A stretch of 64,000 nt of DNA, from positions 5,386-69,385 of the forward strand of contig CAZTJP010000001.1 of the NCBI GenBank assembly GCA_964613895.1, written 5' to 3'. The notes below the pieces were generated by a model. That model did not search any database. It was not told where the DNA came from and saw nothing but the letters and a program-made list of their open reading frames with translations. This DNA comes from an uncultured Thiotrichales bacterium. GTDB taxonomy: Bacteria > Pseudomonadota > Gammaproteobacteria > UWMA-0217. The translations under genes and the position numbers were made by a program. This document shows, piece after piece, positions 38,265 to 40,286 of the stretch (positions are counted from its first letter, which is position 1; every line of letters begins with the position of its first letter).

Positions 38265-40286
38265 ATGAAGAGAATAAAGAAGCTTCGGGTGTCATTCCTG
38301 TTCTTTGTGCTTTCCTATCTCAGCCTGGTTGTCTTGGGATGGTATCTGGATGAGGATGTGGCAGGAGAGTGGGGGGGCTGGGGGCGTGTCGCAGGTGCAA
38401 TAGTCTCCGCAGCCCTGCTTTGGTATCCGCTCTATCTGGCTTCTGTTAACCGTATTCTGCTGGCACTCGTTTCGGGTTTCATGACATTGCTGATTACGGT
38501 AAAGATTTACTATACCCAGATATTGGGTGTGCACATAGAGCCTACGGTGTTCGAAGGTATGTTCGACACCAGTCCAGAAGAGATGGCGCGTTTGGGATCC
38601 TACAAGCCACTGTTATTATTCTTGGTGTTCTTTTTCTATGTCATAATCATTCTGGAATTTGGTTGGTTGAGGTCTCATCCTTTAAAACGTCGTTTATTGT
38701 TTCATACCGCAAAATTGTCTGGTATTACGGTGCTCGTGGTCGCCATATTGGTCGGTAGTGGCATCAGCGTGTGGAGTGCCACGAATTTGCTCGAATCGAT
38801 TTTCCCATTAGACTTTCTGCAAAACTTTTATACAGCAGTTTCGGCACGATATCGTTTATATTTGGCTAATCGTGATCGAGAATCCTTATTGGGTAGGTAC
38901 GAATTTATACGGAAGGAATCTGATCCGGTAACTGTGGTCGTCGTGCGAGGTGAGTCTTTAAGAGCACGTTCGTTCCCGATCAATGATGCGAGATTTCCCA
39001 AGGATCTACGTTTGTCCGGGATCAACAATACTGTTTATCTCAACAACGTTTTTTCCTATGCCAACTATACCCAGGCAGCAGTTCCATGGATGCTGGTCCG
39101 AAGTATCGATGATCATTTGTTGAATGAAAAATCGTTTATTTCCGTAGTCCGGGGGAAAGGTTTTGATACCACTTGGCTTGGGTGTGATAGTTCAAACGTT
39201 GCCGGTTTCGCAGTTCCCATTGTGAATTTTTCTTTCGAGGCTCACAGGTCTCTTTTTACAGGTAAATTGAACGACTGGCTGAAACAGCATGACTCAGATG
39301 AATTGTCGATGTTAACAGGACCCCCATTCCATGATGATCGGCAATTCAAATATCTGCTTGCAACGTTGATGGAAGACAATCAACGTAATCGTTTTTTCTG
39401 GGTGGAAATGAATGGGTCCCATGTACCGTGGGCCGGATTCGATTCGGCATATCGTTACGCAGAGCCGATCTGTCACCAACCGTTGGATGAAGTACGCGCC
39501 TGTAGCGAACAGGCGGCAGTCAATGCTTACAATAGTACTGTTCTGGCCACGCAGCATCTGCTACGCCGCTTGATCGGGGTGCTCAAATCGAGGAATGCAG
39601 TCGTGATTTTTGCGTCCGATCATGGAGAAAGTACTGGTGAGGACGGTTTTTATGGCCATGGGTTCATGCTTCCGAAAGGGAGCCGGAGAATTCGGGATCA
39701 AATCAACCCCGCTTTTATGGTGTGGATGAGCGATCGTTTCAGGCAGAATTACCCTGAGCGGTTTATCGCCTTGATGAAGAATGCTGATGCTTATATGACT
39801 CATGATGTGATCTTTCATTCTGTTCTTGACTTGTTGGGTTTTGAGTCTGAGGTGATCGATAAGCGGCGCAGTATTTTTTCGGATTCGTTCGTTTCAAGGC
39901 AGCCATTCGTGGACGTTGAATATCAAGAAAAAGGAGTGGTTGTCGTCGATGAGGGATATGATCATTTGTTCCTTTCCGTTTCCAGTGATGTGCACGATAC
40001 GTCTTTTAGTCTCGTGATGAAGTTTCGGGGGAAGGGAAACCCGATCCGGGTTTCCCTGGTGGCTGACAAGGGTCAATCCAAATGGCGTTATCGGTTACGT
40101 CAGTCGAATCAGCCTGCTGCACAGGGGGAGTTGGGGGCAGGTGAAAGTGCTTCAGTGGTGATTGGCTTGACCGACTCACGATCCTTGGAGTTGATATTGT
40201 TGCCTCAAGAGAGTGATGGCAGAGCAAGAGCAAAGTTTGATTTGACCGTGAGTCGGTTACCCGCTTCGAACCACGAAGCCAAGTGA
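38265..40286 (+). CDS. phosphoethanolamine-transferase-like membrane protein (EptA/MCR/OpgE sulfatase-fold family) with ~120-aa C-terminal extension
   Basis: 673 aa. N-terminal ~190 aa have ~5 TM helices. The periplasmic alkaline-phosphatase-fold domain has the metal-binding block VVIFASDHGESTGEDGFYGHGF followed by PAFMVWMSD...THDVIFHSVLDLLGF, closely matching the EptA/MCR-1 pattern (SDHGESLGENG...PAFFW...THD). Residues ~555-673 have no counterpart in EptA-type enzymes. Confidence 0.75.
   Translation: MKRIKKLRVSFLFFVLSYLSLVVLGWYLDEDVAGEWGGWGRVAGAIVSAALLWYPLYLASVNRILLALVSGFMTLLITVKIYYTQILGVHIEPTVFEGMFDTSPEEMARLGSYKPLLLFLVFFFYVIIILEFGWLRSHPLKRRLLFHTAKLSGITVLVVAILVGSGISVWSATNLLESIFPLDFLQNFYTAVSARYRLYLANRDRESLLGRYEFIRKESDPVTVVVVRGESLRARSFPINDARFPKDLRLSGINNTVYLNNVFSYANYTQAAVPWMLVRSIDDHLLNEKSFISVVRGKGFDTTWLGCDSSNVAGFAVPIVNFSFEAHRSLFTGKLNDWLKQHDSDELSMLTGPPFHDDRQFKYLLATLMEDNQRNRFFWVEMNGSHVPWAGFDSAYRYAEPICHQPLDEVRACSEQAAVNAYNSTVLATQHLLRRLIGVLKSRNAVVIFASDHGESTGEDGFYGHGFMLPKGSRRIRDQINPAFMVWMSDRFRQNYPERFIALMKNADAYMTHDVIFHSVLDLLGFESEVIDKRRSIFSDSFVSRQPFVDVEYQEKGVVVVDEGYDHLFLSVSSDVHDTSFSLVMKFRGKGNPIRVSLVADKGQSKWRYRLRQSNQPAAQGELGAGESASVVIGLTDSRSLELILLPQESDGRARAKFDLTVSRLPASNHEAK

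Follow-up and report, generated by a model that had tools for sequence, protein, structure and literature searches.

Several periplasm-facing sulfatase-fold enzymes pass lipid-derived phospho-headgroups to glycans, not to lipid A, and are encoded with glycan synthesis genes, among them BcsG, which modifies cellulose with phosphoethanolamine (pEtN), and OpgE and OpgB, which act on periplasmic glucans. The glycan pathways they serve are synthase-dependent rather than dependent on the ATP-binding cassette (ABC) transporter pair Wzm/Wzt, and they have no jelly-roll domain. The gene considered here is at 38265..40286 on the plus strand of a 64,000-nucleotide stretch of DNA from an uncultured Thiotrichales bacterium (contig CAZTJP010000001.1 of assembly GCA_964613895.1; the whole stretch is referred to below as the window). 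Its 673-amino-acid product is recognizable from its open reading frame (ORF), Pfam and NCBIfam matches, a structural model and fold comparison as a phospho-headgroup transferase of the EptA/MCR type that has an additional domain at its C-terminus, and it is the terminal gene of a co-directional run for Wzm, two Wzt proteins and two glycosyltransferases (GTs) of 927 and 386/397 amino acids. The reading favored, with a probability of roughly 0.55, is that it specifies an active enzyme that moves pEtN from phosphatidylethanolamine (PE) to the Wzm/Wzt-exported polysaccharide after export.

In function the closest precedent comes from Shigella flexneri, whose pEtN transferase Opt (LptO) acts on rhamnose (Rha) II/III of the O antigen and is encoded on a 6.8-kb plasmid (PMC3728103). 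It decorates O-antigen sugars and not lipid A; it differs from the window protein, on a comparison by description only, in serving a Wzy-dependent O antigen, in being encoded by a stand-alone plasmid gene and in that no extra C-terminal domain has been reported for it. By architecture and gene logic the closest precedent is instead streptococcal. GacH and SccH are sulfatase-fold enzymes with a threonine nucleophile, encoded in ABC-transporter-dependent streptococcal rhamnopolysaccharide clusters, and they add sn-glycerol-1-phosphate (sn-Gro-1-P) from phosphatidylglycerol (PG) after export, with GacH using Mn2+ (bioRxiv 10.1101/337519). They too are membrane-anchored and belong to an ABC-dependent glycan cluster, but GacH is LtaS-like, has 11 transmembrane (TM) segments and is Gram-positive, whereas the window protein is EptA-like and has five. 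NmEptA (LptA) and MCR-1 share with it a five-TM EptA_B_N domain, a periplasmic sulfatase-fold domain and the same nucleophile and metal ligands. However, its identity to them is only ~18-25%, its extra jelly-roll of ~115 amino acids is absent from them, and it is encoded in a Wzm/Wzt glycan module and not alone or with a PmrAB-type regulator.

Neither the chemistry nor the logic at issue here is new; what is new is how they are combined and the domain architecture in which they occur. A preliminary description of the locus had spoken of unusual chemistry for this type of pathway, which goes too far given that pEtN transfer to O antigen by Opt, and GacH in an ABC-dependent cluster, were already known. 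In the literature searched no pEtN-type transferase is described within a Gram-negative Wzm/Wzt O-polysaccharide module, which is absence of evidence only, and none of the EptA-type proteins examined outside the subfamily introduced below has an added beta-sandwich. If the favored reading is correct, this would be the first case in which a pEtN decoration system has been defined as an integral part of a Gram-negative ABC-transporter-dependent O-polysaccharide module, and no earlier EptA/MCR-type enzyme would have had a dedicated accessory domain that is apparently specific to the type of glycan. The range of acceptors of the clinically important MCR/EptA family would be widened, and there would be a natural case of acceptor specificity being added to a conserved core by a swappable beta-sandwich; uncultured sulfur-cycle gammaproteobacteria would be expected to have O antigens that are zwitterionic or cationic.

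Family, active site and probable donor lipid

The ORF has an ATG start codon preceded at ~9 nt by a purine-rich ribosome-binding site of the GAGAGGGG type. Only 24 nt separate its start from the stop codon of the preceding GT gene, and the stop codon of the convergent queF is 2 nt from its own. The five-TM anchor and the periplasmic motifs that were reported for it earlier are all present, as judged by the ORF translation, hydropathy and the model. The motifs read ASDHGESTGEDGFYGHG, NPAFMVW and THDVIFHS, with the SDHGE-region motif being SDHGESTGEDGFYGHG, alongside PAFMVW and THDVI. Pfam recognizes Sulfatase at residues 223-525 (E 1.4e-22) and EptA_B_N (PF08019) at residues 60-189, the latter with 23.9 bits, just over its gathering score of 22.3; the Pfam BcsG family gives no match at E <= 1.

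Of the NCBIfam matches, 20 are significant and all of these are to pEtN transferases; first come the general domain model NF028537 (133.6 bits, residues 47-538) and an EptA equivalog (117 bits), with the CptA, EptB and MCR families next, and no LtaS or OpgB model is among the 21 matches of the protein. The scores are nevertheless to be set against the NCBIfam cut-offs, which are 500 for NF028537, 561 and 660 for the EptA models (scores of 117 and 80), 493 for EptB (56.8), and 404 and 900 for CptA (62 and 42.9). By these comparisons the protein has the EptA/MCR architecture, yet is no equivalog of EptA, EptB, CptA or any MCR. That its best NCBIfam matches are named as lipid A transferases (NF028537, PRK09598), and that the closest solved structures are of lipid A enzymes, speaks for a classical lipid A or core pEtN transferase of the EptA, EptB or CptA kind that merely travels with glycan genes and alters lipid A charge, and with it polymyxin or cationic-peptide resistance. 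All the scores, however, are four- to fivefold under the family cut-offs, and together with the acceptor site, the extra domain and the gene linkage considered below this makes such a role distinctly unlikely.

A word-indexed search retrieves ~15 proteins with 42-52% identity, nearly all of 670-706 amino acids, and below this subfamily identity falls abruptly to ~25% with ordinary EptA-like proteins of ~550 amino acids. The subfamily is rare. Exhaustive HMMER searching of 1.84 billion cluster representatives yields three representatives with more than 500 bits, the next match after the subfamily being a protein of 542 amino acids without the extension (P0056; 241 bits, 34% identity). Among 185,579 species-representative genomes a single one has a member, and it is a metagenome-assembled genome (MAG) of an uncultured Thiotrichales bacterium; a scan of genome contigs gave mostly Acinetobacter EptA genes, which share the DHGESTGE motif, and one true member. 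All the members are from metagenomes or MAGs of uncultured bacteria.

Searches of PDB sequences, whether with the single sequence or with a profile of the subfamily, match only NmEptA, CjEptC, MCR-1/2, ICR-Mc and EcEptC. An AlphaFold2 model of the full-length protein, built on an alignment of 44 sequences that comprises the subfamily and ordinary EptA-like proteins, has a predicted local distance difference test score (pLDDT) of 88.8 and a predicted TM-score (pTM) of 0.87, and it superposes on full-length NmEptA (5fgn) and full-length MCR-1 (9nww_B) over ~570 columns. These two structures head the Foldseek ranking (5fgn with E 7.6e-21 and a target TM-score of 0.72); every solved pEtN-transferase catalytic domain follows, with PbgA, sulfatases and LtaP far behind. 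PbgA (6xlp, 6v8q) is 23rd or lower, with E 1e-11 and TM-scores of 0.32-0.36, and LtaP (4uop) is 43rd, with E 3.8e-8. Profile and fold searches alike rank pEtN transferases first and neither has LtaS or OpgB as its best match, in agreement with the EptA/MCR type to which the protein had initially been assigned; by sequence and fold it belongs to a distant, separate subfamily of such enzymes. An enzyme of LtaS/OpgB type was rejected on the lack of such an NCBIfam match, the place of LtaP far down the fold ranking and the presence of five TM helices of the EptA_B_N type.

The N-terminal membrane domain (residues 1-190; 38265..38834, plus strand) has a basic N-terminus, five TM helices, placed by hydropathy and the AlphaFold model at about residues 7-25, 40-58, 61-82, 116-134 and 145-169, and periplasmic helices, and it includes T102 and E106. 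It is followed by the catalytic domain of sulfatase/alkaline-phosphatase fold (residues ~215-545; 38907..39899, plus strand), which is recognized from conserved columns, alignment and fold and is predicted to be periplasmic because the basic N-terminus would be inside, five TM helices lie between, and Cys pairs are conserved. Cys403 and Cys413, which are invariant and correspond to the P-x-C...C pair of EptA, fit a periplasmic, disulfide-bonded domain. NmEptA residues E240, T280, H383, D452, H453 and H465 align one-to-one with E230, T269, H386, D452, H453 and H465, T269 being the nucleophile, and the six columns are invariant or >=90% conserved both in a 14-member subfamily alignment and in the 44-sequence alignment.

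A non-catalytic sensor or scaffold like PbgA/YejM, from which transferase activity has been lost, would accord with the occurrence of PbgA among the fold matches, but PbgA ranks so far under the pEtN transferases there, and the nucleophile and all metal ligands are so uniformly invariant in the subfamily, that this is extremely improbable; with the full catalytic set conserved the protein should be no PbgA-like pseudo-enzyme, and that candidate was rejected. That the protein is active as a phosphotransferase of the EptA/MCR type, has its catalytic domain in the periplasm and bears an additional jelly-roll can be predicted with high confidence. The core two-step mechanism, in which the threonine attacks a phospholipid headgroup and a covalent intermediate is formed before transfer to an acceptor, can be assumed from the conserved residues.

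In the cryo-electron microscopy structure of MCR-1 the PE site is formed by M105, N108, T112, E116, E246, T285, K333, H395, H466 and H478 and the lipid A site by K187 and R190; E116 is essential, while N108A and T112A merely lower activity (PMC12658134). A profile alignment to full-length MCR-1 places E106 at the position of E116 and T102 at that of T112, both conserved. Replacements are seen at three other positions of the PE site, namely G98 for N108, an invariant glycine in the subfamily, V312 for K333, and V95 for M105. PE is most likely the donor by this comparison, and the group transferred is probably pEtN derived from it.

The G98 and V312 replacements do lend some weight to an enzyme of the same type, acting on the same glycan acceptor, that carries a different headgroup, either glycerol phosphate from PG, or phosphocholine or methylated ethanolamine phosphate from methylated PE, as do the great distance of the subfamily from all characterized pEtN transferases and the nearness of phospholipid N-methyltransferase-like genes to two of the loci. 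This is unlikely, however, given that pEtN transferases come first in every profile, sequence and fold ranking with LtaS/LtaP far lower, that T102 and the counterpart of the essential E116 are conserved, and that the N-terminal domain is of the five-TM EptA_B_N type and not the 11-TM type of GacH. Of the two methyltransferase genes, that in the window (25863-26588, plus strand) is ~4 kb upstream of the glycan island and has PmtA (NF045882) as its best NCBIfam match, with 208 bits against a cut-off of 390; the other, of the PEMT family, is near the cluster of locus L090 (15601-16110). Should these assignments be real, methylated PE or phosphatidylcholine could serve as alternative headgroup donors, and the proximity is possibly coincidence.

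At the lipid A site the picture is different. K187 and R190 of MCR-1 align to N174 and E177 and the members of the subfamily share no conserved basic pair, so far as can be judged from a loop whose alignment is of low confidence; an MCR-1-type lipid A site does not look conserved, which counts against lipid A as the acceptor.

The C-terminal jelly-roll domain

The extra domain (residues ~551-664; 39915..40256, plus strand) begins where the resemblance to known enzymes gives out, with alignments to EptA and MCR proteins stopping at about residues 530-545 and those to the longer CptA at 561. In the full-length model residues 551-664 form an all-beta jelly-roll sandwich of ten strands (pLDDT mostly 70-92), assigned to the ligand-binding type, and when the domain is modeled alone its topology is identical (pLDDT 72.5, pTM 0.67). 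The preliminary description held that the C-terminal region has no counterpart in EptA-type enzymes. This is borne out among the best 150 library hits: ~147 of them are proteins from outside the subfamily, and in each of these the sequence continues for no more than about 40 residues past the match. A profile of 12 aligned C-terminal domains searched against 5.8 billion proteins finds nothing at E <= 0.001, and no other architecture with the domain was found; Pfam on four of the domains gives noise only.

Within the subfamily the domain is hypervariable. While the TM and catalytic part of other members is 45-54% identical to that of the window protein, their C-terminal domain is only 8-20% identical. 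A W-x-W-G motif near its end is present in most members and absent from the window protein and two others (P0004 and P0005). It is found in all three contexts in which the partner is a methyltransferase-GT fusion and is absent from all three in which the partner is a GT of ~930 amino acids. This division cuts across catalytic similarity, as two proteins with the motif (P0002 and P0003) are closest, at 57% identity, to P0004, which lacks it. The C-terminal similarity of the Wzt proteins, like the class of C-terminal domain, follows the type of cluster: when the second of the two window Wzt proteins (Wzt2) is compared with those of L006 and L007, both from clusters with the fusion, identity is 38-40% and the alignment breaks off at query residue 432 of 480, ~45 residues short of the C-terminus.

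In Wzt and in the present subfamily alike, a conserved part, motor in the one and catalytic in the other, has attached to it a beta-sandwich that evolves fast and differs from one type of glycan to another. The jelly-roll is proposed as a reader of the exported glycan because of this parallel to the Wzt motor with its serotype-specific beta-sandwich, and by analogy its most likely role is to bind the glycan acceptor or bring it into position, which would make it the equivalent in the periplasm of serotype-specific Wzt_C. Enzymes that modify lipid A lack any such hypervariable domain, a further point against a lipid A role.

Gene context and the probable glycan acceptor

Gene context could be compared in eight independent loci, the window and L001, L003, L006, L007, L090, L091 and L092, the last of which is too short upstream to be informative. 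In all seven informative loci a gene for Wzt with Wzt_C and one for a GT with a TuaH-like C-terminal module are directly upstream of the transferase gene, and wzm precedes wzt wherever the contig reaches that far. The TuaH-like module belongs to a double GT of ~930 amino acids in the window, L001 and L003, and to a methyltransferase-GT fusion of 680-766 amino acids, in which the methyltransferase replaces the N-terminal half, in L006, L007, L090 and L091; a GT of ~375 amino acids is usually found between the large GT gene and that for the transferase. Directly downstream in L001, L003 and L007 is an initiating transferase of the Glycos_transf_4 (WecA/WbpL) type, accompanied by a WbpM-like dehydratase, and L090 has ManC, a UDP-GlcNAc 2-epimerase, further GT4 genes and an initiating transferase of the Bac_transf type. 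In several contexts the module is within a classic O-antigen locus with an initiating transferase, a WbpM-like dehydratase, and Ugd or ManC. No WaaL was seen in any of the loci.

The components are conserved together. Local tblastn comparison gives 51-61% identity for Wzm (to L001, L003 and L007), 64-66% over the full length for Wzt2 (to the Wzt of L001 and L003), 48% over the full length for the 927-residue GT (to L001 and L003), 47% for the 386-residue GT (to its partners in L001, L003 and L007) and 50-52% for the transferase. The linkage to a glycan cluster that was pointed out at the start is no accident of this one genome, since further loci have the same gene order and the module is co-conserved. 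The nearest relative outside the subfamily, P0056, lacks the extra domain and is not encoded near Wzm/Wzt genes, and it is for this reason that the two features can be said to appear together and to be specific to the subfamily. In the locus of P0056 (L088, 8721-11629; GCA_037025245.1) the gene has a 4-nt overlap with a gene for 427 amino acids that belongs to no Pfam family, and a methyltransferase gene adjoins; here too an EptA-like enzyme may have a dedicated acceptor, in an arrangement of a different kind.

For a lipid A enzyme that happens to travel with glycan genes, linkage to Wzm, Wzt and GT genes in every informative context, co-evolution of the module as a unit, and the position outside glycan clusters of the nearest relative without the domain would not be expected. 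Accordingly genes of this kind in metagenomes should not be annotated as colistin-resistance genes or as lipid A transferases. There are good grounds for supposing that the glycan of the cluster is the acceptor, which was one half of the original suggestion that the enzyme decorates or caps the polymer.

The favored reading can be set out as follows. A glycan linked to undecaprenyl diphosphate (Und-PP) would be built in the cytoplasm by the 927- and 386-residue GTs, as their family membership suggests, its terminus would be read by Wzt_C and the chain would then be exported by Wzm/Wzt, as is established for pathways of this type. At the periplasmic face, Thr269 would attack a membrane phospholipid, of which PE is the most probable, at its phosphodiester, with metal assistance via E230, D452 and H453 and with H386 and H465, so that diacylglycerol is released and Thr-pEtN formed; the step is proposed because the EptA/MCR catalytic set is fully conserved and E106 is retained. 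The exported polymer would receive the pEtN on a hydroxyl group of a sugar and become zwitterionic or cationic, a transfer suggested by the gene linkage, the co-evolution and the loss of the lipid A site. The jelly-roll would hold the polymer during transfer and vary with the type of glycan-synthesis partner.

The other half of that suggestion, a cap or terminator, fares less well. In E. coli O8/O9a and Klebsiella O12 capping and recognition of the cap by Wzt_C are in the cytoplasm, before export. The subfamily does co-occur with Wzt proteins bearing Wzt_C, which in known systems reads a terminal cap, and the transferase might be imagined to install a cap at the non-reducing end that stops polymerization and is read in this way. 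But its catalytic domain is predicted to be periplasmic, where it would meet the chain only after export and so could not make a cap to be read by Wzt_C in the cytoplasm, and the cytoplasmic methyltransferase-GT fusion of the relatives is a more plausible capping enzyme; the idea is hardly credible, and a cytoplasmic chain terminator was rejected on topology.

Several considerations weigh against transfer of pEtN from PE to the exported glycan. Fold, topology, an intact catalytic set, the extra domain and conserved gene linkage come out of the analyses themselves, but the identity of the donor lipid, the choice of the glycan as acceptor and the part played by the jelly-roll are inferred, and the assignments of donor, acceptor and product draw on homology and gene linkage. 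As the family scores are four to five times under every curated cut-off, function is not transferable by equivalog rules. The equivalents of N108 and K333 are not conserved, which would leave room for another headgroup or another mode of binding, and confidence in the alignment is low around the residues of the lipid A site. The correlation between class of C-terminal domain and type of cluster comes from six contexts only and is suggestive, not statistical. The island of the window has no gene for an initiating transferase, for WaaL or another ligase or for sugar-nucleotide synthesis, and this bears on whether the destination of the polymer is lipopolysaccharide or something else.

From the lack of WaaL or any other attachment enzyme in the island, a quite different role can be constructed in which the Und-PP-linked glycan is itself the phosphodiester donor, with glycan-1-phosphate being transferred to an envelope acceptor, or in which the protein is a hydrolase that releases or trims the polymer. 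The threonine mechanism of the alkaline phosphatase superfamily could in principle attack any phosphodiester or diphosphate, and the changed PE-site residues G98 and V312 are in keeping with this; a conserved EptA_B_N lipid-donor domain with E106 and T102, on the other hand, fits a phospholipid headgroup donor, and relatives are encoded in O-antigen loci of the ordinary kind, for which ligation of the WaaL type is to be expected. We know of no precedent for a sulfatase-fold enzyme using an Und-PP-linked glycan as donor, and the proposal is very improbable. Its most far-reaching form, equally much of a long shot, has Thr269 form a covalent Thr-phospho-glycan intermediate while the jelly-roll holds the polymer, and would make of the subfamily a new class of sulfatase-fold glycan-phosphate ligase or anchoring enzyme; it would explain both an island without a ligase and the changed equivalents of N108 and K333.

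The glycan island of the window

The genes from 30676 to 38240, all in one direction, have what characterizes an ABC-dependent O-polysaccharide module, namely Wzm, Wzt with Wzt_C, and cytoplasmic GTs, and the co-directional order from 30676 to 40286 upholds the earlier statement that the transferase gene is the last of an ABC-transporter glycan run. Wzm (30676..31500, plus strand) is the ABC-2 permease (Pfam ABC2_membrane, 7.5e-25). Two wzt genes follow, also on the plus strand, and both products match Pfam ABC_tran and Wzt_C: Wzt1 (31430..32818) has its own diverged Wzt_C and is only 41-43% identical to the single Wzt of the relatives, and Wzt2 (32861..34303) is an ABC ATPase with the Wzt_C carbohydrate-binding domain. 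From the identities, Wzt2 is the orthologous Wzt of the module and Wzt1 an extra copy. The tandem pair, which share one Wzm, are 43% identical overall and far more diverged in their C-terminal carbohydrate-binding parts; on this sequence evidence they could serve to take two different glycan termini through one permease.

The 927-residue GT (34300..37083, plus strand), which is presumed to be the polymerizing enzyme, has an N-terminal GT4 module (residues 13-290) and a C-terminal TuaH-like GT module (residues 666-910), with a region of ~370 amino acids between them on which Pfam finds weak coiled-coil-type noise only. The GT-spacer-GT layout is reminiscent of proteins that act as polymerase and ruler in other O-antigen systems dependent on ABC transporters. 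Its C-terminal half is 50% identical to the corresponding part in L007 and 33% to that in L006. The conserved partner immediately upstream of the transferase gene (37080..38240, plus strand; the longest ORF, from 37047, has 397 codons) is a TuaH-like GT of 386 amino acids, a length also called in L004, and its matches to NCBIfam TuaH (9.2e-14) and Pfam Glyco_trans_1_4 are weak.

The module (~30500-40290) forms a low-GC island, its GC fraction being 0.47-0.52, between the housekeeping genes dxs on one side and queF/smc on the other, in which the fraction is 0.58-0.61. No tRNA gene, integrase gene or flanking direct repeats were found to mark it, and a promoter and terminator scan of 29.8-41 kb gave sites no commoner than in shuffled sequence and no usable operon boundaries. 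Between dxs and wzm is an ORF of 177 codons (29961-30494, plus strand; GC 0.61) with no Pfam match; 22.6 bits to the NCBIfam model for the amyloid subunit FapB, with its cut-off of 190, are probably not meaningful. Plus-strand ORFs of 1415, 704 and 394 amino acids in the first 25 kb of the window (1-25000) are of sizes that suggest an rpoB-rpoC / fusA-tuf / ribosomal-protein region, which would fit an island situated on the chromosome, within the core genome. The Dxs of the window has 73-76% identity to proteins from Thiotrichales and Gammaproteobacteria MAGs and 68-69% to those of Thiohalobacter and Thioalkalivibrio.

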